Below are positions 3,211-43,055 of a stretch of 48,122 nucleotides of DNA, in pieces. Position 1 is the first letter of the stretch; each line of letters begins with the position of its first letter. The stretch is from a virus (lineage: Duplodnaviria > Heunggongvirae > Uroviricota > Caudoviricetes). The translations under genes and the position numbers were made by a program. The notes beneath the pieces are model-generated. The model was not told the origin of the DNA, made no database searches, and was given only the letters and a program-made list of their open reading frames with translations. The stretch lies in IMG/VR virus record IMGVR_UViG_2563366985_000003, one strand, 5' to 3'.

Positions 3211-3437
3211 AAAATAATCTCGGTGTGAGATGCCTTACGTCTTCCAAGCCCCCTTCCTTGCCGTAAATGGAAAGATACATCTAATTATAGAATTTATATG
3301 TTTTACCCTACGGCAGTGCTGGCCATTCAATATCCTGTGCAGTTGACGTATCAACACGGTTCAGCAACACCCGATACTTCTTCAAGGCTTCCCGCAACGA
3401 GGTTTCTTCCTCCGTTGCATATACAGCTCACCTTTTT

Positions 3438-3731
3438 TCACCCACGATTAACCAACAGCCAGACCAGCAGACACGCCACCACCGGCACAGCAAAATCCAT
3501 CAGGCTTGCTACATCCCATGCACGTGGGTCAAAACCGCCCCACCACGGCATATTCATACGCTTGCCATGCCCGAACATTTCAATCCAGCGATATTCTGCC
3601 TGGGTATGTTCACGCGCAATGAAGAACGTACAACCAGCTATCGCCCCGTAAGCCCAGTTTCCGGTAAAAAGACCAACCAGTACCTGCGCAGCCACAGCAC
3701 AAAGTGCATGAAGGAAAGGTGTTATATCCAT
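3438..3731 (-). CDS. Hypothetical small membrane protein
   Basis: 97-aa ORF with two hydrophobic segments, distal to tail-fibre genes; no family recognised. Confidence 0.35.
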   Translation of the reverse strand: MDITPFLHALCAVAAQVLVGLFTGNWAYGAIAGCTFFIAREHTQAEYRWIEMFGHGKRMNMPWWGGFDPRAWDVASLMDFAVPVVACLLVWLLVNRG

Positions 3732-3741
3732 TACGCCTCCT

Positions 3742-4446
3742 TTATCCGATATCGCTTCGGGAAACGGATAACAACTTTAATTCTGACTCAAGTTCATCAA
3801 CTCTTTCAGTCAGCTTCTGGATATGGTGAACCAGTGGAACAACCAGACGTTCGTACATTACACCTTCGGCAACAAGGCCATTGCTGGAAATGGTTTCCGG
3901 TGCATCATCTTCGTTGGCTGGTCGCCAGTGAACAAACTGAGGGGCAATTTCTCCAACTTCCTCGGCAATCAATCCATAGAATCCCCAGTCACGCCTGTCA
4001 TTTTCGCATTGCGACCTGTACCACACAGGGCGCATCCTGAAAATGAGATCGGCGTGCTCTGAATCTATCGTCTCTACTGAATGTTTATAGCGGATAGACG
4101 ATGTTGACCGCAGCACAGACGAAATTGCAGGGTCAGGATTAAGATAAAGATTTGCCGCCGCTGTAGTTGTGCCCAATCCCCATAAATAAAACGCTTCACG
4201 GCCAGTCAGCGGGTAAAAATCTCCGCCATAACGACCACTTTCCAGATCGTTCACTTCCACTTTGTTTTTCAGCTTATTATCAACTTCAGTTTTTGTGTAT
4301 CTGGTGCTGATATCCTGCTTTGCACTGGCCATATCAGTCTGAAGCGTTGATACTTTTCCGTTAATAGAGGAAATATCTTCCTTTGCTTTACTAACATCTC
4401 CCTTCAGCGTGGTGATGTCTCCCGGAATTACTGTTGATGTAGCCAT
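3742..4446 (-). CDS. Tail-fibre-like protein with C-terminal intramolecular chaperone (peptidase S74-like) domain
   Basis: 234 aa; N-terminal coiled-coil-like segment, then motif resembling S74 autoproteolytic chaperone (SSIRYKH...WGFYGLIAEEVGEIAPQFV...ERLVVPLVHHIQKL). Confidence 0.6.
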   Translation of the reverse strand: MATSTVIPGDITTLKGDVSKAKEDISSINGKVSTLQTDMASAKQDISTRYTKTEVDNKLKNKVEVNDLESGRYGGDFYPLTGREAFYLWGLGTTTAAANLYLNPDPAISSVLRSTSSIRYKHSVETIDSEHADLIFRMRPVWYRSQCENDRRDWGFYGLIAEEVGEIAPQFVHWRPANEDDAPETISSNGLVAEGVMYERLVVPLVHHIQKLTERVDELESELKLLSVSRSDIG

Positions 4447-4455
4447 TTTTCTTCC

Positions 4456-4737
4456 TCACATCCAGCCACGAAGTTGATGCTCAACAGCAACCGCGTATTC
4501 ATCGAATAATGACGATATTTGCGTATCCTTAATGATGCGCACGTTTACAAAATATCCATCTTCCTTAACACATACCGGTTCGCCATCTTCAGTCAGCTCT
4601 CCGGTTTCTTTGTACACGTTACCTATCACATCAATCAGAATATCATCCTGCATCGACTCGTCATTATAATAGCCAATACTTCCCATAAAGGCCGAAAAGT
4701 CGGCCCTGTCGGCAAATTTGAGTGTTAAATCTTTCAT
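4456..4737 (-). CDS. Hypothetical protein immediately downstream of stf (possible fibre accessory/assembly factor)
   Basis: 93-aa ORF whose start abuts the stf stop; no family recognised. Confidence 0.35.
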   Translation of the reverse strand: MKDLTLKFADRADFSAFMGSIGYYNDESMQDDILIDVIGNVYKETGELTEDGEPVCVKEDGYFVNVRIIKDTQISSLFDEYAVAVEHQLRGWM

Positions 4738-7142
4738 TAGATTGACTCCCCCATCTGAGCATCAGTCAATGCCTTGTGCCAAATACGCAGATTTCGAACG
4801 TGTCCAAATAGGTGACGGTTGCCGGATGATGATTGACCACCAATATTAATGAAGCCTCCTGTATATTTGTGTTTTTTATAAGGAGAAACTACCTTAGCAC
4901 CAATATTACCGTTAACCACAACACACAATTCTCGACTTTCTGTGAATCTAAAGCCGATAATGCTTTTTCTCTCTGGTCGTTCTATAACGCTTTTATATTC
5001 TATTTTAGTGCCTTTACCATTTGTAATGATTGCGCGTGCTCCCAAAGATGTATACCCCAAATACATATAACTTTCATCTGCAATTTCAGTTGTATCTCCC
5101 GTAGTGGAAATATTAAGAATACGTGCGCTACCTTCTTTGTTTGGCGATTCATCCCAATTGGTATTAACTTCTGCTAATGAACTAATAGCGGGATTGCACC
5201 AATTTAGAGAAATGGGGACCGTTACAATATCGCTGGCGCGTGTTACAGGGGATGCGCCTGTTATAATAAACGATGAAGCGCACGCCCCACCTTCAACTTG
5301 AGGGGTCGCAATATAAATATAATCATCCGCGCCAGTGCCCACTCCTTTTGCCGGGGCATACTGAACCATTCCACCTATCATATTTTCTGTATCAAGTGCC
5401 TTAATTGTCGCCTCAAAAAAGATCCATTTGCTTGCTTCATCTTTAACAGCCCTTGCAGTAATGCGATTAGCGGCACCACCCGTCTTATCAATAGATAAAT
5501 CTGTCGTATTTAAGTAAGCGTCACCTAAGAATGTGTAGGTAGAACCATCATAGTTTTCAAATCGTAATCGGCATCTTAAATTTGGAGTGCCACTTTGCAC
5601 CCTGCATGATATGGTTACATACTTTTCTCCGCCTGTTACATCAAAACCTTTACTGCCGGAAACGGTTACTATGTTAATCGCTGAAATTTGCCCTACCATT
5701 TCTGGTTTTAATGTAAATTTTGCGTACTGGAATCCGAAATCATCTACACCTGATGCACTTAAGATCATATTTGACGACTTGTTCCATTTAGTCGGATTTG
5801 TTGAATTGATTAGCAGGTTAGTTCTTTGCCCCTCAATAAGCAGGCCATCACGTTCAAATCGTGGCTCGTCAATGGCAGCCTCTGTCAGCACACCAGATTT
5901 ATTAATGTAAGTTGCTTTCGATGCGCGTTTAAACTTTACAATCTTGTCGCCAGGCATTGTTATTTCATCGTCGCCAATAACAATTTTTTTATATGATGGC
6001 GAAAAGCCCGTAATCATATCCAGTGAATCATTAAACGGTATCCACACATCGGGCAACGGCTGCAAAACTTGTTTATACGGCTCCGCTGCCTGGCTTGCAT
6101 ACTCTCTGGCTGCGTCTTCACTTGCTTTAGCTGCTGTCTGGCTTGCTGCCGATGCTTGCGCCGAGTTCGCCGCCGCAGTCTCGCTCGCCTTTGCGTTGGT
6201 TTCACTGGTTTTTGCTGCTTTTTGACTGTTAGCTGATGCAGTGGCAGAAGCAACCGCCGCGCTTGCAGAACTGGCTGCGGCACTCTCGCTTTGAGCCGCT
6301 GCATCCTGACTGCTTTTCGCCGCAGTTTCACTGGCTTTGGCATTCGTTTCGCTGGTCTTCGCTGCCGTCTGGCTGGACTTTGCGTTAGTTTCACTCGTCT
6401 TCGCAGCTTTCTGGCTGTTAGCCGCAGCAGTTGCTGATCCAGCTGCTGAAGTCGCAGAACCGGCTGCCGCGCTCTCGCTTTGGGCTGCTGCAACCTGGCT
6501 GTTTTTTGCCGCAGTTTCACTGGCTTTGGCATTCGTTTCGCTGGTTTTCGCTGCCGTCTGGCTGGACTTTGCGTTGGTTTCGCTCGTCTTTGCGGCTGTC
6601 TCGCTATTTTTCGCGTTGGTTTCTGATTTTTTGGCTGCTGTCGCGGAGTTTGCCGATGCAGTCTTTGAGGTCGCTGCCGCCTGTGCACTATTAGCTGCAT
6701 TCGTTTCTGAGGTTTTCGCCGCGTTCTTTGATGATGCCGCTGCAGTTTCGGATTTCTTTGCCGCCGCTGCGCTCTGAGAGGCGGCTTCGGCGTTGCGTGC
6801 CACTTCTTCCACCATTGCCTCAAAACGACGCAATGCCTCCGGCATGACATCATCTTCCGTCATGGCACCGAGAAAATCATTCAGCGTACCTGGTCTGGAG
6901 CCTTCATAGACGGTAATGGTCCCGGCATGTGAAGGCGGAAAACCTTCAACCAGCAGGGTGACGCTGTACTGGCCATACTCAACATCCATGCTGTAACGTC
7001 CGGCTTCATCCGGATTTTCAGAAGCCACCGTGTTCACCAGTACCGTGGTGCTGTTACGCTTTGCCTTCAGTTGAATAGTGCAGTTCTGTATTGGTTTTCC
7101 CGCACCATCTTTCAGCACACCTGAGATTTTTACTGCTGCCAT
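4737..7142 (-). CDS. stf: Side tail fibre protein: lambda Stf-like N-terminus, Ala/Ser/Thr tandem-repeat stalk, lectin-like (LamG-type) C-terminal domain
   Basis: N-terminus AVKISGVLKDGAGKPIQNCTIQLKA... matches remembered lambda Stf; C-terminus ends NRHLFGHVRNLRIWHKALTDAQM, resembling the concanavalin/LamG motif; true ATG at 7142. Confidence 0.85.
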   Translation of the reverse strand: MAAVKISGVLKDGAGKPIQNCTIQLKAKRNSTTVLVNTVASENPDEAGRYSMDVEYGQYSVTLLVEGFPPSHAGTITVYEGSRPGTLNDFLGAMTEDDVMPEALRRFEAMVEEVARNAEAASQSAAAAKKSETAAASSKNAAKTSETNAANSAQAAATSKTASANSATAAKKSETNAKNSETAAKTSETNAKSSQTAAKTSETNAKASETAAKNSQVAAAQSESAAAGSATSAAGSATAAANSQKAAKTSETNAKSSQTAAKTSETNAKASETAAKSSQDAAAQSESAAASSASAAVASATASANSQKAAKTSETNAKASETAAANSAQASAASQTAAKASEDAAREYASQAAEPYKQVLQPLPDVWIPFNDSLDMITGFSPSYKKIVIGDDEITMPGDKIVKFKRASKATYINKSGVLTEAAIDEPRFERDGLLIEGQRTNLLINSTNPTKWNKSSNMILSASGVDDFGFQYAKFTLKPEMVGQISAINIVTVSGSKGFDVTGGEKYVTISCRVQSGTPNLRCRLRFENYDGSTYTFLGDAYLNTTDLSIDKTGGAANRITARAVKDEASKWIFFEATIKALDTENMIGGMVQYAPAKGVGTGADDYIYIATPQVEGGACASSFIITGASPVTRASDIVTVPISLNWCNPAISSLAEVNTNWDESPNKEGSARILNISTTGDTTEIADESYMYLGYTSLGARAIITNGKGTKIEYKSVIERPERKSIIGFRFTESRELCVVVNGNIGAKVVSPYKKHKYTGGFINIGGQSSSGNRHLFGHVRNLRIWHKALTDAQMGESI
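6150..6790 (-). repeat. In-frame tandem DNA repeats within stf encoding repeated KTSETNAK(S/A)S.TAA units
   Basis: Repeated blocks such as gccgcagtttcactggctttggcattcgtttcgctggt recur with few changes. Confidence 0.7.
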
Positions 7143-7152
7143 ATCCACTCCA

Positions 7153-7180
7153 CAAAAAAGCCCGCCTGAACCGGCGGGCT
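7153..7180 (-). terminator. Rho-independent terminator between lom and stf
   Basis: Perfect GCCCGCC/GGCGGGC stem with 6-nt loop followed by T-run on the minus-strand transcript. Confidence 0.55.
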
Positions 7181-7206
7181 GTCATAACACTGTGTTACCT
7201 GGCTAA

Positions 7207-7806
7207 TCAGAACTTATAACCGACACCCACGATGAAACCGTCAGTGCGCCAGTCGCCACTGCCGGAGCCTTCATAAGCAATATCAATGGCCACGGATTCG
7301 GTCGGGTTAAACTGCACGCCAGCTCCCCACGCCAGAGACGTGTTGCTGTGGCGACCGTCATCACTTCCGGTCAGCACATCGTGCGTTTTCCCCTTATTGT
7401 CAGTTACGCGGAGATAATCCCCGGAAAAAGTCGACACACGGCTGTAAGCCATACCCGCCATCGCATACGCGCTGAACCATTCATTCACGCGCACAGACGG
7501 CCCCGCCATCACGCTGAACCAGCGGTTACGCACGGAATCTTCATGCCAGCGGGTATTGCTGTAACGGGTAAGCTGGCGATTCTTGTCTCCTGCATAGCTG
7601 AATGACGTCACCAGCCCCAGCGTGTCCGTAAATTCATAACGGTATTTCACGTTAATCCCGTTAAGATCATCGCTGCCGGGAACGTTCGTCGAGGCATGAA
7701 GATACCCCGCGCTCAGCGTGGACTGATGTTCAGATGCCCATGCAGGCGCACCGGATACGGACAGACAGATGGCTGCGGACAAAATGGCTGCACAAACTTT
7801 ACGCAT
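7207..7806 (-). CDS. lom: Lom/Ail-family outer-membrane beta-barrel protein
   Basis: 199 aa with signal peptide; C-terminus [24 protein letters not shown] matches remembered lambda Lom. Confidence 0.9.
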
Positions 7807-34401: not shown

Positions 34402-35490
34402 TTACGCCAGTACGCCAATTGCCAGCGCGCGATCGATAAAACGAAATATCAGCTCCAGTTGGGAGCCATACTTCTCTTCAAATGCCACTGTATCCGTATG
34501 CAGCTCGTTGTGATGCTTTCTGCACAAAGGCAACACAAAGAGATCATGTGCTTTTGTTCCCATTCCGCCCTGCCCGTGACCAATCAGATGATGCGGATCG
34601 TCGGCTGGCATACCGCAGCAAGCACACGGCTGTGTCTTAACCCAACGTGTGTATTTCTCCTTAACCCAGCGGCGACGTTTAGGCAGCTTCATGAAAGATT
34701 CCGGAGACTCTGGATCAACGGTGATGCTTACCACCGTCTTTTCCTGTGGTGGTTTTTGTTGCTGGTAGGCGTAAGGCAACGGTGCAAGATTTTTTGTGCG
34801 TTGTTTCAATATGCTGGTGGCGGTCTGCTCTCCCGGTACGATGTCGCTTTCGCGGTACACCGAGCAGATTTTTTCCGCTGGTAATCCCAGCGAACGACGC
34901 GATACAGCCTCAGGTAGTGCATCCACCACCTGATTGCAGACCGCCCACCAGGATAATTCAGCCAAAGATAATTCCCGCTCCTGCGTACCGCTTATTGCGT
35001 GACGGATGACGTCAATCACCCATGCTGTCAGATTTTGTTGAGCAAGCAGATCCAGTGATTCCGATGTCTGGTCACGCAGTTGGTTGTCGCAGTGCCAACA
35101 CAACACCATTGCGCCGGTACCATAACGGTGAATGACTGTTTCAGAGTGATGGTAATCGCCATTAGGCCACTGGCAGGATGTAACATGACGTAATAGCCAG
35201 TCAGACAATGCGCCAACGCCGCCAGCAGCACGAATCACCCGTTCGTTACTAAAAAACGGCAGCAATGTTTTGTCTTCCACCAGCGGCTGGCGAACGGCAG
35301 GAACGACTCCGGATGGCAGATTACGCATGCTTTTTGGTTCCGGTTCCACCAGCACTCGAGGATTATGAAATATCTGTATGGATTCACGGCCCGGCTTAAG
35401 GACCACCAGCCCAAGCTCAGGCACCAGAACAGGTCTAAGTAATACCCGCACGTTACCTCCAGATCCGTTGCTGGAAAGTGCGGGACGCAC
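34402..35490 (-). CDS. ydfU: YdfU-family (DUF968-like) protein with C-terminal HNH-like Cys/His cluster (NinG/Rap-like position)
   Basis: C-terminal motif PCACCGMPADDPHHLIGHG...CRKHHNELH; upstream of Q; exact start uncertain. Confidence 0.6.
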   Translation of the reverse strand: MRPALSSNGSGGNVRVLLRPVLVPELGLVVLKPGRESIQIFHNPRVLVEPEPKSMRNLPSGVVPAVRQPLVEDKTLLPFFSNERVIRAAGGVGALSDWLLRHVTSCQWPNGDYHHSETVIHRYGTGAMVLCWHCDNQLRDQTSESLDLLAQQNLTAWVIDVIRHAISGTQERELSLAELSWWAVCNQVVDALPEAVSRRSLGLPAEKICSVYRESDIVPGEQTATSILKQRTKNLAPLPYAYQQQKPPQEKTVVSITVDPESPESFMKLPKRRRWVKEKYTRWVKTQPCACCGMPADDPHHLIGHGQGGMGTKAHDLFVLPLCRKHHNELHTDTVAFEEKYGSQLELIFRFIDRALAIGVLA

Positions 35491-35731
35491 GTGGTCGGCG
35501 TTCGGAGTAAGGCAATCTGACTGAGATTATCCAGTGACGGTAGTCGAGGCTAAGGGCTTTCTTAACCTCGTATCCGCGCCTGCGGTAACACTGAATTATC
35601 CATTCAGCCTGCTCTTCAGTGCATGGAGGGTGTTGGAACCATTCAGACTTGAATGCGTGAGAATACCGCTCGTGCGTGCAGACAAGAACGGGCGAATTAT
35701 CAGAATTGTAATATTTTACGTTGCGTGCCAT
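35453..35731 (-). CDS. Hypothetical protein
   Basis: 92-aa ORF between rem and ydfU. Confidence 0.35.
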   Translation of the reverse strand: MARNVKYYNSDNSPVLVCTHERYSHAFKSEWFQHPPCTEEQAEWIIQCYRRRGYEVKKALSLDYRHWIISVRLPYSERRPRASRTFQQRIWR

Positions 35732-35797
35732 CGGTTTTCTCCGGTGGCACGGTGTTACTCAGCGGGAGTTCAGCCCCGCGCAAGATTGTAGATGAGT

Positions 35798-36049
35798 TTA
35801 TTCTTCTGCAAAAGCTGAAAAGCCTGCTTTTATTCCGATCTCTTTCAGTGCCTGTAATGAAGTGACAAACTCACCTTCGCGCAAGATAAATCCGTCCGTG
35901 ACTCGAGCATCCACAAAATTAATTAACGCAGCCCCATTCTTTCGCAAACACAGAATGCGGTAATGACTAACAATGTTTCCATTTTCAACGCACACAGCAT
36001 AGAGGCCATCTTCACAAAAAATTTTACGCAGTTCTTCGATGTTCATCAT
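35798..36049 (-). CDS. rem: Rem-like small prophage protein
   Basis: 83-aa ORF MMNIEELRKIFCEDGLY...; size and position match rem of K-12 Qin from memory. Confidence 0.55.
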   Translation of the reverse strand: MMNIEELRKIFCEDGLYAVCVENGNIVSHYRILCLRKNGAALINFVDARVTDGFILREGEFVTSLQALKEIGIKAGFSAFAEE

Positions 36050-36182
36050 CAGAATCCTTCCGGATAATTAACTCTCCCCTTTAAGGGACCATCCCTCTTA
36101 TCCCTGCGCGCTACTTAAGTATTTTTGATTCTATTCCGGCACCGTCCAGAACTTCAAACGCGTTGAAAATAAAAACAAAAAC

Positions 36183-36208
36183 CCGCCGAAGCGGGTTAAG
36201 TGCGGGTG
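36183..36208 (-). terminator. Intrinsic terminator downstream of hokD
   Basis: AACCCGC-ttcg-GCGGGTT hairpin followed by TTTTTGTTTTT on the minus-strand transcript. Confidence 0.5.
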
Positions 36209-36265
36209 CGTTGAGGATGCCTGTCACATCAGAGGTGGCGAGGGATTTCTCCCTCGCCGGGTCTC

Positions 36266-36421
36266 TTACTCCTCAGGTTCGTAAGCTGTGAAGACAGCGA
36301 CCTCCGTCTGGCCGGTTCGGATTCGTACCTCGCAGAGGTCTTTCCTCGTTACCAGTGCCGTCACTATGACGGTTAAACAGATGACGATCAGGGCGATTAA
36401 CATCGCCTTTTGCTGCTTCAT
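36266..36421 (-). CDS. hokD: Hok-family type I toxin
   Basis: 51 aa MKQQKAMLIALIVICLTVIVTALVTRKDLCEVRIRTGQTEVAVFTAYEPEE. Confidence 0.9.
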   Translation of the reverse strand: MKQQKAMLIALIVICLTVIVTALVTRKDLCEVRIRTGQTEVAVFTAYEPEE

Positions 36422-36611
36422 AGCCTGCTTCTCCTTGCCTTTCGGCACGTAAGAGGCTAACCTACATGTGTCTAGCATGAAATTGGCCTCAGATTAATGT
36501 TAAGCGTCTTGCAGGACGCGTAATGTTAACTGGGGCTTTTCTCTATCTGCCTTTGGTGTTCGTGCCCGAGGCAGATAGCCTCAAGCACCCGCCGTGATTC
36601 TACAAAAACAT
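36422..36611 (-). promoter_or_regulatory. hok mRNA leader (5' tac-like stem-loop, mok-start region; putative antisense sok on opposite strand)
   Basis: Transcript 5' end GCGGGUGCUUGAGGCUAUCUGCCUC... resembles remembered plasmid R1 hok mRNA 5' end; TAGAAT -10 just upstream. Confidence 0.55.
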
Positions 36612-36828
36612 TACCCACCTTTCCAGCAATTCACAACAACTCCATGCAAATAGTAAGTAGAATAATAAGTTATTAGTATTAGCAATTTACTTAGTTTCTA
36701 ATTTGTGCCAATGATTTTCATTTTTGCATGAAAAATACCTTAACATTTTATATTTACTTACTATTTGTAAGCCCCATCAGTTCTTTCTGATGGCGGCTGG
36801 TATTTCAGTTCCAGATATAGTATATGCT

Positions 36829-37857
36829 TTACGCCTTAATAGGGTTAATCACATTTCCGCTATCCGTACCATAGTATTTTTTTGTAGTCATGCCTTGTTT
36901 ATAATAATCATTTAACAGTTTGAGAAAGTTTCTTCCTTGCCTCTCATCTTCTATGACTAATTTACCATGCTCATTGGTCTTAAACTCTTCGTTCTGAAAC
37001 ATTTTTAGCACATCATTCATAGCTTGAACATCATTCTTTTCCAGAGCCGTATGGTTACCTTTCTCAGCGATATGAGTGAGAATTTTTCTCAGTGATGGCT
37101 TATGAAGAATAGCTTGTTCAATAACATCTAAACCTTCAATAAGATCAAGTTCTTTAATTGTATTTAATGTTTTTTGTGCAGCTTCTGTAAACTCAACCTC
37201 CAAGCCTACAATAGCCTCAAAACTTTTCTTATGAAATACATAAAATTGATCTTTTATATAAATACAATCGATTTTGTCATCAAAATTGACTGCGCTGCCA
37301 TCAAATGATCTTAACTCTTTATCTGTTTTATCAAACAAAGCGAATACGCGCTGAGTCATATTTTGTGGTTCATTTGTTGTGACTTTCCCCCTGCTGATTT
37401 TTCGGAAAGAATAAGTGACGTCAGCCCCCTTTTGGACTTTAATACAATAGGCCCACAAATCATTCTGAACCTCAGCAAGAGAGGTAAGTACAACTGGTTT
37501 ATCATTCTTTATATCGTTATTAATAACTTTTGAAAACGATATCGCGTTATTCATAGCATAGGCATAAATCTTATTATCAATATCATCATCAATAACAGTA
37601 TACTTTTTCATCACAATATCATCTTTCGAAGCATGAGAAATAATCTGGTTTGATAAAGTATACTTAAAAAATTTAGCAATATCTGGAGCGATTGGAGCTT
37701 TAATGATTTTAAAATCGAATTTATCAACAACTCTTGCGGTTCTACTCATACCCGCTTTAAGATGTCTAGTAATGAAATACAACGATATTTTCGCCGCATC
37801 ATCATCCTTAAGTTGCTCAGCATACTCTAATAATTCTTCAAGCTTTAACATTTTCAT
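36829..37857 (-). CDS. Candidate defence-module partner protein (342 aa, soluble, no recognisable catalytic motif; KwaB-like size)
   Basis: AT-rich ORF overlapping the upstream membrane-protein gene by 4 bp; function inferred from context only. Confidence 0.6.
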   Translation of the reverse strand: MKMLKLEELLEYAEQLKDDDAAKISLYFITRHLKAGMSRTARVVDKFDFKIIKAPIAPDIAKFFKYTLSNQIISHASKDDIVMKKYTVIDDDIDNKIYAYAMNNAISFSKVINNDIKNDKPVVLTSLAEVQNDLWAYCIKVQKGADVTYSFRKISRGKVTTNEPQNMTQRVFALFDKTDKELRSFDGSAVNFDDKIDCIYIKDQFYVFHKKSFEAIVGLEVEFTEAAQKTLNTIKELDLIEGLDVIEQAILHKPSLRKILTHIAEKGNHTALEKNDVQAMNDVLKMFQNEEFKTNEHGKLVIEDERQGRNFLKLLNDYYKQGMTTKKYYGTDSGNVINPIKA

Positions 37858-38468
37858 TCCTTATGGGATTCAGCATAAAAAAGTTTTGGGCCCACGTCCT
37901 CAACATCAAGAAGATCATCTTCCTCCAAATACTTTGATTTAGTCAAAACCATACCAGTGCGTTTTTTGTCGCTTTCTAAATCCAAATATGTAACTTGATA
38001 TAAAGTATAATTAATACTTATCGTAGGATTTATAAGTATCATGCTTGAATTAATATATATTAAAGCCGTTACCGTTAACAATATTGCTATAGGTATAACA
38101 TTAGTTAAAGTGGATAGATCCTGAAATACAAACGGAATTATATATGTAAAAAGATAGCTTATTGATTCATTGTTTTTATTTTCAATATCTATAACTCTTA
38201 CAGTTCTACCACTAGTGGCGCATCGACGTTTTATATTTTTTAAAAAAATTGTTAATCCTACAATACCAAATAATGATAATACACCAATGACACTGACCGC
38301 GCCAAAGTATTTAAAGAAAATAGTTAATGATTCAACACTTATACCTTTCCAATTTAAATAGCTTCTATAAGTATACAATTGCACAAAACACATGATAAAG
38401 AATAGGGGAAGGTATGACACTATAAATAGCGAAACTCTAGCACCTAAATGTAGTTTATTTACTCTCAT
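37854..38468 (-). CDS. Candidate defence-module membrane protein (204 aa, four predicted TM helices, acidic C-terminal tail; KwaA-like architecture)
   Basis: Four hydrophobic segments (approx. 12-31, 55-76, 103-115, 123-146); AT-rich; first gene of two-gene operon. Confidence 0.6.
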   Translation of the reverse strand: MRVNKLHLGARVSLFIVSYLPLFFIMCFVQLYTYRSYLNWKGISVESLTIFFKYFGAVSVIGVLSLFGIVGLTIFLKNIKRRCATSGRTVRVIDIENKNNESISYLFTYIIPFVFQDLSTLTNVIPIAILLTVTALIYINSSMILINPTISINYTLYQVTYLDLESDKKRTGMVLTKSKYLEEDDLLDVEDVGPKLFYAESHKE

Positions 38469-38608
38469 AACTACCCCACAGCCTACACGTCTAGTATTTT
38501 ATGTTATTTCGAATAATTATGCATCAGATTACAATCCTACAATTGTGCATAAAACGAGCATTTTGCTGATTTTTCTGCGGATGCCTGAGACAGACAACCT
38601 CAAGCACC

Positions 38609-38644
38609 CGCAGCAATTTTACTTAACTCCCGCTACCTCGCCAA
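38609..38644 (-). promoter_or_regulatory. Putative sigma70 promoter and hok-like transcript start driving the two-gene module
   Basis: -35 TTGGCG, 17-bp spacer, -10 TAAAAT, then GCGGGTGCTTGAGG (second copy of hok mRNA 5'-end sequence). Confidence 0.4.
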
Positions 38645-38676
38645 TATGAAATCAATAAGAAAGGTGCTCCATAAAA

Positions 38677-39363
38677 TCACTCCTTCTCTTCTTTATCGTA
38701 GTGGAGTTGACCAATTTTGATAAGAGGGCGTCCCTGAGATTTGCGGTGTAGATTGGTATCGCGCAGAGAATACACACAGCCACAATATTCCTGCTGATAG
38801 AATTTTTCGCGCTTGCTGATTTCAATCATGCGGGACGAGCCGCCCTGCTTGCGCCAGTTATAATCCCAGTACACCATGCCCGGATAATGCGCGACGGCTC
38901 GCCGCCCACAGTCGTTAACCTGCTGCATATTTTTCCAGCGTGAAATGCCCAGTGAACTGCTGATCACACTGAAACCATTTTCAGCAGCGTACAGCGCTGT
39001 CCGCTCAAAACGCATGTCAAAACACATGGTACAACGGATCCCCCTCTCGGGCTCCCATTCCATTCCTTTGGCACGTTCAAACCAGTTGTCTGTGTCGTAA
39101 TCAGCATCAATAAATGGCACGCCGTGTTGTTCAGCAAAGCGAATATTCTCATCCTTACGAATTAAATACTCTTTCTGAGGATGAATGTTCGGGTTGTAGA
39201 AAAAGATGGTATAGTCGATTCCCGAGGCCTGAAGCGCCTCCATCACTTCACCGGAACATGGAGCACAGCAAGAGTGCAGTAGTAGTTTGTTTGCCCCGTT
39301 TGGGAGCTCCAATTTAGGCCGTTTGAAATCAGCAATAGTCATAAATATTTTTATTGGGGTCAT
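38677..39363 (-). CDS. queH: Epoxyqueuosine reductase QueH homologue (DUF208)
   Basis: 228 aa with hallmark motifs [21 protein letters not shown]-terminal YCGCVYS. Confidence 0.8.
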
Positions 39364-39544
39364 GAAAATAGCACAGAGTGTAGCATCAGAGCAGGGCTAT
39401 CGGGAATAGATGTCTAAATCTGGTAATATCTGCTTTTGACGCAAAGCAGACAACCACGCTAGCTCAATCCTGTGCCGTGAAAATGTCAATTCACATCTGA
39501 ACTAATGCTCTTTAATCTAGTTACGTCTATAAATAACGAAAATT

Positions 39545-39943
39545 TCACTGATAAAATGCCAGTATGCGCTGCATAACTTCGCTCTTCCGGCACTCACAGC
39601 AAATTATGTTTTGGTGCCTGTCATAACGACGTATTTCTCCGTCAGGTAATGACCAGATAAGGTCCGGATCAACCACAGATGTTTTCTTCGCCTTTGCCCT
39701 CGAGAGTTTTTTGCGGGCGTTTTGCCAGTCCTTACGAGCCTGTTCAGACGGGAATAACCCGTAGCCAGAGTTATATACATCACCACTGGCAACCAGCTCT
39801 CTGGCGAGAACGCTCATCAGATATCTTGTCGCACCTGTCTTGGCTTCCAGTTGCCGTAACGTCTCGCGCCCACTCCGGCGTACTAGCTCAACAACCTGCC
39901 CCTTGATTTTTTCCCGCTCTTCTTGTGTAAAAACTTTTGCCAC
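39545..39943 (-). CDS. Hypothetical protein
   Basis: 132-aa ORF between replication gene and queH; basic C-terminal half with CCEC motif. Confidence 0.4.
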   Translation of the reverse strand: MAKVFTQEEREKIKGQVVELVRRSGRETLRQLEAKTGATRYLMSVLARELVASGDVYNSGYGLFPSEQARKDWQNARKKLSRAKAKKTSVVDPDLIWSLPDGEIRRYDRHQNIICCECRKSEVMQRILAFYQ

Positions 39944-39983
39944 AAGTCCCCCTTAAAATTACCTCATGACCTGAAATCAACAC

Positions 39984-41003
39984 TTATCCCCTGAAACCAG
40001 GCGGAATTTCTGTATCCGGTTCAGAAATATGATTCACACAACGCTGTACAGGTGAACGTCCCAGGCGGATGACCAGTTCGTCCCATTTTTCGCGGAGTTT
40101 TGACGGGCTCATGATGTTTTTTACCCAGAATGGATCCCGCTGTACCCGACCAAACATTTCGCAAATTTGTCTGTGGCTTCTGCCATCCAGCATCCGCATT
40201 GTGCGCACGTCATTGGCCCAGGCTGTCCAGTTAGGCTCTTTTGGTCGCATGATCTCTCCATCGTCGCTGGCAGCCTGTTCGTAAAGGTTCACGATCCGCC
40301 CCCAAATCCACTGCGCACACGCCAAATCCTCCCTGCTACCCCACTGGCGTTTTTTCACACTAAACACAACCGCGTCGGGGTTCCGGGTTAAAAAATCCTG
40401 TTCAGTCGTCTGCGGGTCCGGTTGCGAAGCTTCCGGACGAAAAGTGTTTTTATTCTCTGTAGTAATCTCTGTTGTATTCTCTGTAAGATCATCAGGCCAT
40501 TTTGACCCGATGACATTGGGTCGTTTTGAACCAATGGAGCGTTTCATTTTGACCTCTTCCATCGTGTCATTTTGACCTGATGGAGCGGCGCATTTTGAAC
40601 CGATGGATTCGTTCAATTTGCCACCATCTAAAAGCTCGCTCCCATAGTTGATCGTGTAGAAATTGGTCATATCGCGCTTTGATTTATTGAGCTTTTCACA
40701 ACGCAAAAGCCCCAGCGTTTTCAGACTTGCAAACGCGCGCTTTAACGTTGACTCTGACCAGAATGGGAACTGTTCCAGCCATTGTTCCGTTGTGTTGTAA
40801 ATCCAGCGAACACCATCACATTCCATGCCGGAATTGGTATCTCTCAACCAGTAATGCAATTGCTGCAACACAATGGCTTCATTTAAGCCAATCTTCATCG
40901 CAAGCTGTGTGTTTATAACCAGTGGGCGTTCAGCAAAAAGAAGGCTCATAATTCCATCCAGCTTTTTGTTGGTATTGCTGTCGATACGCAAGTTTGAAAG
41001 CAA
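39984..41003 (-). CDS. Replication initiation protein (O-like; phage replisome-organiser N-terminal domain)
   Basis: N-terminal domain resembles replisome-organiser family; gene contains ori-type iterons; start may be internal Met at 40949. Confidence 0.7.
   Translation of the reverse strand: MLSNLRIDSNTNKKLDGIMSLLFAERPLVINTQLAMKIGLNEAIVLQQLHYWLRDTNSGMECDGVRWIYNTTEQWLEQFPFWSESTLKRAFASLKTLGLLRCEKLNKSKRDMTNFYTINYGSELLDGGKLNESIGSKCAAPSGQNDTMEEVKMKRSIGSKRPNVIGSKWPDDLTENTTEITTENKNTFRPEASQPDPQTTEQDFLTRNPDAVVFSVKKRQWGSREDLACAQWIWGRIVNLYEQAASDDGEIMRPKEPNWTAWANDVRTMRMLDGRSHRQICEMFGRVQRDPFWVKNIMSPSKLREKWDELVIRLGRSPVQRCVNHISEPDTEIPPGFRG
40497..40615. repeat. Replication-origin iterons inside the O-like gene
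   Basis: Five direct repeats of about 19 bp (CATTTTGACCCGATGA / CGTTTTGAACCAATGGAG / CATTTTGACCTGATGGAG / CATTTTGAACCGATGGAT ...) at about 23-bp spacing. Confidence 0.7.
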
Positions 41004-41451
41004 TTGCTTTTTCTATAAGTTCGTCAGTTTCACGATCCACTACGGCAGGATCAGCAAAAAGCAGTCCGGACTCCACCACATCGCCATATTCTTTGTTTAA
41101 CCCGGCGATCATGTACGTGATGCTTTTTCCGTCACTAATTTCACGATACAACCTGAAATCATTAATCCGAATAGCCTCCATAATTGCAGGCACTAGCGCC
41201 GTGAACTTTTCACGCTTATCCCTGGTGTCGATAGCCTTCCAGCGTTCGAATATCTTCACTCGATTAACGCTAAGCGCTCGCTGATCAACCGCGCCACCTT
41301 CATATGTGACACGCTGAACATCGATGTTCGGGCGCTCTTTCAAAGCCCAGAATGCTTCAGTGATTAATATCGTCGCCTGCTCCTGTGTCATTCCTGGTCG
41401 ACATATCCAGGCATCCAGAGCCTCACGAGCCTGTTCAGGAGTGATTTTCAT
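40930..41451 (-). CDS. Hypothetical early-region protein (cII position)
   Basis: 173-aa ORF directly downstream of dicC; family not recognised. Confidence 0.4.
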   Translation of the reverse strand: MKITPEQAREALDAWICRPGMTQEQATILITEAFWALKERPNIDVQRVTYEGGAVDQRALSVNRVKIFERWKAIDTRDKREKFTALVPAIMEAIRINDFRLYREISDGKSITYMIAGLNKEYGDVVESGLLFADPAVVDRETDELIEKAIAFKLAYRQQYQQKAGWNYEPSFC

Positions 41452-41665
41452 TGTTCAACCGCCCCGCCCGCTTCGTCTTACGATATTCGTCATAAACTTT
41501 GGGATCATACTGAAGCTCCCCGCCAGATGCCTCCTGTAGACGCATCGCGCGACCTTCGGGAACTAAATCCCCTTTCCAGCTATAAAGCGAAGCCAAACGA
41601 ATACCTGCTGCTTGTGCAAGTTTTGTTTTTGAACCGAAATACAAAAGAGCGTCAGTTTTAAGCAT
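41435..41665 (-). CDS. dicC: Cro-like repressor DicC
   Basis: 76 aa MLKTDALLYFGSKTKLAQAAGIRLASLYSWKGD..., divergent from dicA. Confidence 0.85.
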   Translation of the reverse strand: MLKTDALLYFGSKTKLAQAAGIRLASLYSWKGDLVPEGRAMRLQEASGGELQYDPKVYDEYRKTKRAGRLNNENHS

Positions 41666-41680
41666 TTAAAACACCTTAGT

Positions 41681-41747
41681 TGTTAGTCATGGCTAACAAA
41701 ATAGATGTTAACAAAAACATAGTCAATACGATTTAGCATTAGCTAAC
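41681..41747. promoter_or_regulatory. dicA/dicC divergent promoter region with operator-like palindromes
   Basis: TGTTAGTCATGGCTAACA (41681-41698) and TTAGCTAAC (41739-41747) between the divergent genes. Confidence 0.5.
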
Positions 41748-41748
41748 T

Positions 41749-42156
41749 ATGGATACAAAAAATTTAACCATCGGCGAACGCATTAGGTATCGTCGGAAAA
41801 ACCTCAAACACACCCAAAGGTCTCTTGCTAAAGCCCTGAAAATCTCCCATGTGTCTGTATCACAATGGGAACGGGATGATAGTGAACCTACAGGGAAGAA
41901 CCTTTTTGCCCTCAGCAAAGTATTGCAATGCTCACCAACATGGATTCTATTTGGCGATGAAGACAAGCAACCAACACCACCTGTTGAGAAGCCGGTTGCC
42001 TTAGCCCCCAAAGAACTAGAGCTCCTTGAGCTGTTTAATGCACTGCCAGAATCAGAACAGGATACCCAGCTCGCCGAAATGCGAGCTCGAGTAAAAAATT
42101 TCAATAAACTCTTTGAAGAATTACTAAAAGCCCGTCAGCGGACAAATAAAAGATAA
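41749..42156 (+). CDS. dicA: HTH (XRE-family) repressor DicA
   Basis: 135 aa MDTKNLTIGERIRYRRKNLKHTQRSLAKALKISHVSVSQWERDD... matches remembered DicA. Confidence 0.9.
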   Translation: MDTKNLTIGERIRYRRKNLKHTQRSLAKALKISHVSVSQWERDDSEPTGKNLFALSKVLQCSPTWILFGDEDKQPTPPVEKPVALAPKELELLELFNALPESEQDTQLAEMRARVKNFNKLFEELLKARQRTNKR

Positions 42157-42191
42157 CATCATCAATGAGTTATCTTTTATTATATCAATTA

Positions 42192-42243
42192 TGTTAGCCA
42201 TAACATACAAAATCACTTGACCAATATGTTAGTCATAGCTAAT
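42192..42243 (+). promoter_or_regulatory. Operator-like repeats at the promoter of the ydfA-dicF-dicB operon
   Basis: ATGTTAGCCATAACAT and TGTTAGTCATAGCTAAT, same motif as the dicA/dicC operators. Confidence 0.45.
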
Positions 42244-42322
42244 CTTGTTTACATCAACACACCGCACGGTGTTCTCAGCAAACAGTTCCGCCACCCCGGC
42301 GTTAAGGGGAAATGAGGTCAGC

Positions 42323-42478
42323 ATGGATACTATCGATCTTGGCAACAGCGAATCTCTGGTATGTGGCGTGTTCCCCAACCAAGACGGCACGTTCACCGCG
42401 ATGACGTATACCAAAAGCAAAACGTTTAAAACCGAAAATGGTGCCCGTCGCTGGCTGGAAAGAAACTCAGGTGAGTGA
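42323..42478 (+). CDS. ydfA: YdfA-like small protein
   Basis: 51 aa MDTIDLGNSESLVCGVFPNQDGTFTAMTYTKSKTFKTENGARRWLERNSGE. Confidence 0.7.
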   Translation: MDTIDLGNSESLVCGVFPNQDGTFTAMTYTKSKTFKTENGARRWLERNSGE

Positions 42479-42479
42479 T

Positions 42480-43055
42480 ATGGATTTCGACACAATCATG
42501 GAAAAGGCTTACGAAGAATACTTCGAAGGCCTTGCCGAAGGCGAAGAAGCTCTCAGCTTCAGTGAGTTTAAACAGGCACTCAGAATAAGAATGTGCTCTC
42601 ACAATGACGCGGAGCACAAATATGAGAAGCAAAATCAGACCGCAGAAAATTTTGTTCTGGAACCCGGAGAAACGCTTTTCAAAATTCCCGTTACGTGCCC
42701 CATTTGCGGTTTTACATCAGAAGAACTTGACGACTCCTGTAACAATCAGGAAACAACCAAGTATGTCGAAGATGATACCGAGTGCGCACGAAGAACGATT
42801 ATATCCACGAGTCCAAACTCCAGGACCAATAAATCTCACTTTGAGAGGGTGATTAATCCACTCCCCCAAACCAATAAAAAAGATGCCGGAGGACAAAAAA
42901 CCCAATGGAACAACGGGATATCTGTCAAAAAAAGACGTTCCATTAAAGACAAACAACGCAGCGCCAACAACTGTAAGCGCTTTATACCAGTAATCAATTT
43001 TCATGTTCTTAAGCGGATTTATTGGTGGTTGCGACATTGCTTAATGAATCCTTAA
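42480..43055 (+). CDS. Hypothetical protein in ydfB/ydfC position (single 191-aa ORF here)
   Basis: ORF from MDFDTIMEKAYEEYFEGL... with CPICGF zinc-ribbon-like motif; continuous frame to 43055. Confidence 0.4.
   Translation: MDFDTIMEKAYEEYFEGLAEGEEALSFSEFKQALRIRMCSHNDAEHKYEKQNQTAENFVLEPGETLFKIPVTCPICGFTSEELDDSCNNQETTKYVEDDTECARRTIISTSPNSRTNKSHFERVINPLPQTNKKDAGGQKTQWNNGISVKKRRSIKDKQRSANNCKRFIPVINFHVLKRIYWWLRHCLMNP

Follow-up and report, generated by a model that had tools for sequence, protein, structure and literature searches.

A QueH-family gene carried by Qin-like and Rac-like prophages of Escherichia coli

On the minus strand of the window analysed here, a stretch of 48,122 nucleotides from a virus of the Caudoviricetes (IMG/VR record IMGVR_UViG_2563366985_000003), an open reading frame of 228 codons lies at 38677..39363. 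An earlier note on this DNA had read it as a homologue of the epoxyqueuosine reductase QueH carried as prophage cargo, and the locus raises the question of what such a gene may do in E. coli, in which the full queuosine pathway exists (PMC5372724, PMC9508795). The last step of this pathway in E. coli needs cobalamin, according to Frey (1988) as quoted in PMC4646009. QueH has been described as an iron-dependent, non-orthologous alternative enzyme (PMC5372724, PMC9508795, PMC13443448), and S. aureus, S. pyogenes and S. suis have both QueG and QueH, whose differential expression there is ascribed to cofactor availability (PMC13443448, PMC12632869).

Identity and extent of the gene product

In the profile search that the earlier note had proposed as a check, the product matched PF02677 (QueH, DUF208) with 220.6 bits (E 1.9e-65) against a gathering score of 23.5 bits, the match covering profile positions 1–174 of 175. 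The only PDB entries matched by sequence were those of QueH from Thermotoga maritima (7lc5, E 5e-22, residues 27–203). An AlphaFold model of moderate quality was obtained from an alignment of 28 sequences (mean pLDDT 68, pTM 0.69), with the C-terminal CxC region being poorly modelled (pLDDT <50). When this model was compared against the PDB with Foldseek, the five best matches were all T. maritima QueH (E 2.4e-8; TM 0.70, target-normalised), with an rmsd of 2.9 over 151 columns. The predicted fold is the adenine-nucleotide-alpha-hydrolase-like fold that is also seen in the T. maritima enzyme (7lc5, 7lc7, 9deu).

The 228-residue ORF with QueH hallmarks that had been described earlier is present in the translation with all three of its motifs, namely HSCCAPCSG (residues 30–38 in the numbering of the 228-residue ORF, which is used throughout), FYNPNIHP (55–62) and YCGCVYS (193–199). 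A family alignment was made from the 64 full-length matches among the best 150, which were drawn from 1.84 billion cluster representatives. Cysteines C32, C33, C111, C114, C194 and C196 are invariant in this alignment (64/64) and all are kept in the prophage protein, as are the equally invariant N59, E106, R110, K144, Q191 and G195. The protein thereby conforms to the metal-binding cysteine pattern CCxP[C/D] ... CxxC ... CxC of the family and also has the invariant E, R, K and Q. At position 36 it has Cys, whereas the aligned residue of T. maritima QueH is Asp13, the residue altered in the D13N mutant (PDB 9dco). This was considered as a possible sign of neofunctionalisation and ruled out, since Cys is the majority residue (60/64, with Asp in 4/64 including T. 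maritima) and Cys36 is therefore no deviation.

The profile, the homologue of solved structure, the invariant residues and the predicted fold all agree with the earlier assignment, and on these sequence features the product is a member of the QueH family with all invariant residues intact. This identity is already known, the family being characterised and the exact protein being named QueH in RefSeq, so the identification itself adds nothing new. A search of NCBIfam release 20 gave no QueH match, though RefSeq names the identical protein QueH; this probably reflects a library without such a model and does not count against membership. The protein also had no match in PADLOC. PHROG 3217 ("unknown function") matches it with 457 bits, yet the match begins no earlier than residue 41 (38677–39243; residues 41–228), which indicates that many phage annotations use a truncated start and so lose the CCAPC motif. 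The record of phage HannyBb labels its queH gene hypothetical. Truncated, unnamed versions of this kind, without CCAPC, may explain why QueH in phages has been overlooked.

The extent given in the earlier note (38677–39363) holds for the ORF, which exists as described; the coding sequence itself is likely to be shorter. The first seven codons vary by allele, reading MTPIKIF or MNLINTF, and in the M114 allele a stop codon lies within this stretch. RefSeq has the CDS begin at the second ATG, with bounds of 38677..39342 in identical genomes, and homologues are 214–222 amino acids long. For these reasons the true start is most likely M8 at 39342 and not the ATG at 39363, which would give a product of 221 amino acids. 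No Shine-Dalgarno sequence was found before either ATG. The two segments are as follows.

38677..39342, minus strand: probable queH coding sequence, 221 amino acids from M8, stop codon included; matched by PF02677 and 7lc5, with the RefSeq bounds
39343..39363, minus strand: seven in-frame codons upstream of M8, probably untranslated; unconserved, with a stop codon in M114

Prophage setting and neighbouring cargo

The window represents a Qin-like lambdoid prophage which is 99.9% identical over 3.5 kb around queH to that of strain MS 85-1, where the element sits between ydfJ and rspB. In every E. coli context inspected, comprising Qin-like prophages, Rac-like prophages and phage HannyBb, queH directly follows a DUF977 gene. 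The same upstream neighbour was detected in 70 of the best 80 IMG/VR loci, with the other 10 giving no match at the thresholds used. On the downstream side, hok/sok follows 45–55 bp after queH in most of these best 80 loci. The recurrence of this prophage context in many genomes upholds the earlier description of queH as prophage cargo. In the window itself, a Kiwa cassette is present between queH and hok/sok, and the neighbouring features are as follows.

39545..39943, minus strand: DUF977/Ren-like gene (PF06163, 101 bits; phrog_142), the end of the replication module and the upstream neighbour of queH
38582..38622, no strand assigned: right-hand boundary of the Kiwa insertion, one copy of a 41-nt direct repeat
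36604..38581, minus strand: Kiwa cassette (KwaA and KwaB), an independent insertion outside the queH unit
37854..38468, minus strand: KwaA (PADLOC PDLC00212, 336.6 bits)
36829..37857, minus strand: KwaB (PADLOC PDLC00223, 528.6 bits)
36563..36603, no strand assigned: left-hand boundary of the Kiwa insertion, the other copy of the 41-nt direct repeat
36416..36590, minus strand: sok antisense RNA of hok/sok (Rfam RF01794, 115.7 bits), the usual downstream neighbour of queH where Kiwa is absent
36416–36590, 36266–36478 and 36180–36197, minus strand: hok/sok locus and then a terminator, the sole strong minus-strand terminator of the region

A weak isrK-like Rfam match (25.6 bits, under the gathering score) overlaps the terminator at 36180–36197.

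The earlier note had placed queH immediately upstream of a candidate defence module. The module is genuine, with the start of KwaA lying 208 bp from the queH stop codon on the same strand, but the adjacency is coincidental. The Kiwa block is 2.0 kb long and has a GC content of 0.27–0.35 against approximately 0.48 in the flanks. The direct repeats that bound it are imperfect (80% identity, 2019 bp spacing) and prophages without Kiwa have one copy of the repeat sequence, which fixes the site of insertion precisely, at a point shortly upstream of hok/sok. Kiwa was found beside queH in 155 of approximately 985 carrier genomes and in 6 of the 80 best IMG/VR viral contigs. Judged from its composition, boundaries and distribution, the cassette is a separate insertion and QueH is part of no defence system. 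A link between QueH and Kiwa was ruled out on the lack of a PADLOC match for QueH, the independent distribution of the two and the AT-rich, repeat-bounded nature of the cassette.

Other cargo was seen at the same place. An NgoMIV-type restriction-modification cassette adjoins queH in 10 of the best 80 IMG/VR loci, in which the distance from queH to the DUF968 gene ranges from 796 to 2919 bp. In E. coli strain 9000, an NgoMIV-family restriction enzyme and a cytosine methyltransferase lie downstream of queH (locus positions 3806–5816). The slot for cargo next to queH is thus variable, holding hok/sok, Kiwa or restriction-modification genes, which suggests a cargo hotspot in Qin-like and Rac-like prophages. 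The allele of the B lineage carries a short methyltransferase remnant between the DUF977 gene and the conserved 5′ flank of queH (6768–6953 in the REL606 locus, 5762–5968 in that of HannyBb), which shows that queH also has an insertion point on its upstream side.

Origin of the gene and its 5′ flank

The nearest relatives of the prophage protein are QueH proteins of other Enterobacterales, to which it is 78–92% identical. Chromosomal copies were found in Scandinavium, Kluyvera, Enterobacter, Erwinia, Pantoea, Providencia, Photorhabdus, Serratia and Dickeya, and these are stand-alone genes in ordinary, non-phage surroundings with no defence neighbours. An Erwinia-type contig has queH between purL and glrK, with Pantoea, Photorhabdus, Scandinavium and Enterobacter having it in other non-phage settings. 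A scan of species representatives confirmed 595 relatives and, among the best 80 loci, a DUF977 neighbour was found in one (E. albertii). Since its closest relatives are stand-alone chromosomal genes, the prophage queH looks like a captured Enterobacterales housekeeping gene. Synonymous sites are saturated between prophage and chromosomal copies, which indicates that the capture was not recent.

It had been stated in the earlier note that enterobacteria normally use QueG for this step. This is correct for E. coli, in which queG was present in 5426 of 5426 genomes at a threshold of at least 95% nucleotide identity and at least 80% gene coverage, but it does not extend to the many other Enterobacterales that have a chromosomal queH. 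Going by these genomes, the gene is not exotic for the order.

Some further observations were made on the wider clade. The chromosomal queH of Providencia adjoins tmcA, another gene for modification of a tRNA wobble base, at a distance of one gene (locus positions 3265–5286 and 6001–6645). The prophage protein is 75–80% identical even to clade members in Sphingomonas, Paracoccus, Neisseriaceae, Pseudomonas and Stenotrophomonas, which span the Alpha-, Beta- and Gammaproteobacteria. Identity this high is unusual over such distances and is a sign of either extreme constraint or horizontal spread. Two records labelled "Acinetobacter phage MD-2021a" (CAKLQH020000001.1 and CAKLQF020000001.1; 328–378 kb) encode a QueH that is 78.5% identical; in size and content they look like bacterial or mis-binned DNA and not like a phage.

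Approximately 125 nt upstream of queH are conserved in all prophage alleles. The window is homologous to REL606, HannyBb and LR-31 from 38671 up to 39466, where the homology breaks off, and to M114 only up to 39391. The conserved segment and a candidate promoter within it are as follows.

39343..39466, minus strand: conserved 5′ flank of queH, which travels with the gene between prophage types according to the alignment
39377..39385, minus strand: extended −10-like sequence TGcTACACT, candidate queH promoter, 34 nt before the M8 ATG in the conserved block, M114 included

Chromosomal queH genes have TGCTACACT, TGCTAAAAT or TCTACACT elements 31–36 nt before the ATG, and a TGnTAnAnT element at this distance is common to the prophage and chromosomal copies. 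The idea that a long stretch of upstream chromosomal DNA was captured with the gene was ruled out, as alignment similarity to the chromosomal copies stops at this short −10-like element. A scan for two-hexamer (−35/−10) consensus promoters found none in the 181-bp gap upstream of queH and did not report TGcTACACT. A terminator scan found none between DUF977, queH and KwaA; on the minus strand the first strong one lies at 36197..36180, after hok/sok. Transcription of queH could consequently come solely from the repressed early-right operon. An Rfam scan of 35000–43000 returned only sok and two sub-threshold matches elsewhere, with no preQ1 or cobalamin riboswitch near queH. From the conserved flank it would seem that queH brings its own promoter; the promoter call is a weak one.

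Distribution and possible role in lysogens

Of 5426 complete E. coli genomes, 1047 were found to have queH, O157:H7, ST131 and E. coli B REL606 being among them, and 985 of the 1047 hold at least 80% of the gene. Among IMG/VR records at least 191 viral contigs encode a QueH relative, the best 80 being 99–100% identical, and the gene is also present in the isolated phage HannyBb. In E. coli queG is thus core and queH accessory. Both genes occur in every queH-positive E. coli and REL606 holds both intact. With queG being universal in the species, QueH is a second enzyme there and no replacement. The predicted reaction and substrate are the same for both, namely the conversion of epoxyqueuosine at position 34 of tRNA (oQ34) to queuosine (Q34), whereas fold and cofactor are unrelated and QueH uses no cobalamin. 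For six prophage alleles, pairwise dN/dS was 0.05–0.09 with dS up to 0.40, which indicates that the prophage gene is maintained by selection. In strain MIN10 queH is broken by an IS4-like insertion.

On E. coli plasmids of approximately 75 kb, divergent QueH fragments of 52 amino acids (67–74% nucleotide identity) were found in 62 places. They lie among insertion sequence remnants and genes for the type III secretion effectors espT and nleG, as in pDEC5B-4 (O55:H7; locus positions 7125–7280) and similar O103 plasmids. The plasmid-borne QueH matches in E. coli were set aside, as these 52-residue fragments among IS elements are not intact genes.

It is proposed that Qin-like and Rac-like lambdoid phages of Escherichia captured a chromosomal queH together with a short 5′ flank, and that the gene is now a moron, presumably self-promoted, located where the replication module ends. 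Its product would be an iron-sulfur, cobalamin-independent tRNA epoxyqueuosine(34) reductase, which would turn oQ34 into Q34 in tRNA-Asp, tRNA-Asn, tRNA-His and tRNA-Tyr. E. coli has no de novo synthesis of cobalamin. As QueG needs this cofactor and the host cannot make it, the likeliest effect on the lysogen is that queuosine maturation would be freed from B12 supply. No phenotype is known to tell oQ from Q, and for this reason a benefit from B12-independence is conjecture. The analysis establishes membership of the family, intact catalytic residues, purifying selection, location in prophages, redundancy with queG and independence from Kiwa; that the enzyme is active, that the lysogen expresses it from a promoter of its own and that fitness is raised are inferred. 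No report on the activity, expression or tRNA nucleosides of this protein was found in the literature searched.

The arrangement resembles that of lambdoid morons and auxiliary metabolic genes, in that queH is likewise one gene taken from a host, brings a short conserved 5′ flank with it and is variably present among related prophages, and its placement between the replication module and the nin/antiterminator region is moron-like. It differs from lambdoid morons in that no terminator bounds it, expression in the lysogen is presumed, and the cargo is a tRNA-modification enzyme. Compared with other QueH genes, the prophage copy lies on temperate phage genomes and not on the chromosome, in a host which already has QueG.

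A role in the lytic cycle may be considered in place of one in the lysogen, with QueH made by early-right read-through after induction and giving more Q-tRNA for the translation of late genes. The orientation of queH, which is that of the replication genes directly upstream, the lack of a terminator-like site between them and the lack of a strong sigma-70 site before queH would all suit such a helper. However, turnover of the tRNA pool is slow relative to the lytic cycle; the 5′ flank with its TGnTAnAnT element moves with the gene, and the element also precedes chromosomal copies, which are necessarily self-transcribed; and queH under purifying selection persists in defective, non-inducible Qin/Rac remnants such as that of REL606. 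A lytic function is for these reasons considered unlikely. It could also be argued that the gene is a neutral passenger, captured from a host, without function in E. coli and decaying, given its full redundancy with queG, which is universal, its absence from approximately 80% of E. coli genomes and its occasional disruption or fragmentation, as in MIN10 and in the plasmid remnants. Decay is difficult to reconcile with the low dN/dS at the divergence observed, with the retention of all invariant catalytic residues and with the largely complete gene in 985 of the 1047 carrier genomes, and the absence of any function is held to be very improbable.

Still less credence is given to a coupling with defence, in which QueH would be an accessory of Kiwa or would modulate the state of tRNA in anticodon-nuclease-type immunity or counter-defence. 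What speaks for it is that queH precedes KwaA in the same orientation without an intervening terminator, and that Kiwa or NgoMIV-type restriction-modification genes repeatedly occupy the adjoining slot; the missing PADLOC match, the foreign composition and flanking repeats of the Kiwa insertion, its presence beside only a minority of queH genes and the solitary chromosomal orthologues all speak against it. A role in modification of the phage genome, with QueH acting on a DNA 7-deazaguanine derivative or another epoxide, is suggested by phages that use preQ0-derived DNA bases (PMC6884629) and had been raised by the earlier note as a possible 7-deazaguanine pathway. The phage clusters concerned (DpdA with FolE, QueC, QueD and QueE) share with this locus only the link of queuosine/7-deazaguanine chemistry, and the prophage lacks their signature transglycosylase and preQ0 synthesis genes: the annotation of the MS 85-1 prophage, which is nearly identical (99.9%), contains no DpdA/TGT-like protein, QueA, QueC, QueD, QueE or FolE. 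Moreover, deoxyqueuosine was found in no phage tested (PMC6884629), and the prophage protein remains 78–92% identical to housekeeping QueH with no invariant residue altered. With the transglycosylase and preQ0 genes missing, the DNA 7-deazaguanine role is unsupported and was ruled out, and the reading as a whole, another epoxide substrate included, is regarded as scarcely credible.

Taken as a whole, the account of a functional QueH, encoded by a captured housekeeping moron and converting oQ to Q independently of cobalamin in lysogens, is considered probable. Its stronger form is put forward more tentatively, as possible but somewhat short of probable: that queH is a lysogenic-conversion gene expressed in the lysogen, by which queuosine maturation is cobalamin-independent in approximately one-fifth of E. 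coli strains, among them the B lineage, ST131 and O157:H7.

Going by the literature searched, carriage by phages is the sole under-reported aspect of QueH. A survey of viruses published in 2019 found no QueA, QueG or QueH homologues in those analysed (PMC6884629), and nothing relevant on a prophage or phage QueH was found in the literature searched, RefSeq accessions included. If the lysogenic-conversion reading is true, no enzyme of the queuosine-specific tRNA branch would have been reported from a phage before this one, as far as that literature shows. Carriers and non-carriers such as K-12 would then diverge in their oQ/Q status when B12 or its BtuB-mediated uptake is lacking, with possible effects on the decoding of NAU/NAC codons, on the cost of btuB loss and on sensitivity to nucleases that target Q anticodons. 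Should QueH be active in lysogens, B/REL606, ST131 and O157:H7 would differ from K-12 in the response of tRNA queuosine to B12, which would matter for work on tRNA modification, on codon-biased translation and on recombinant expression.
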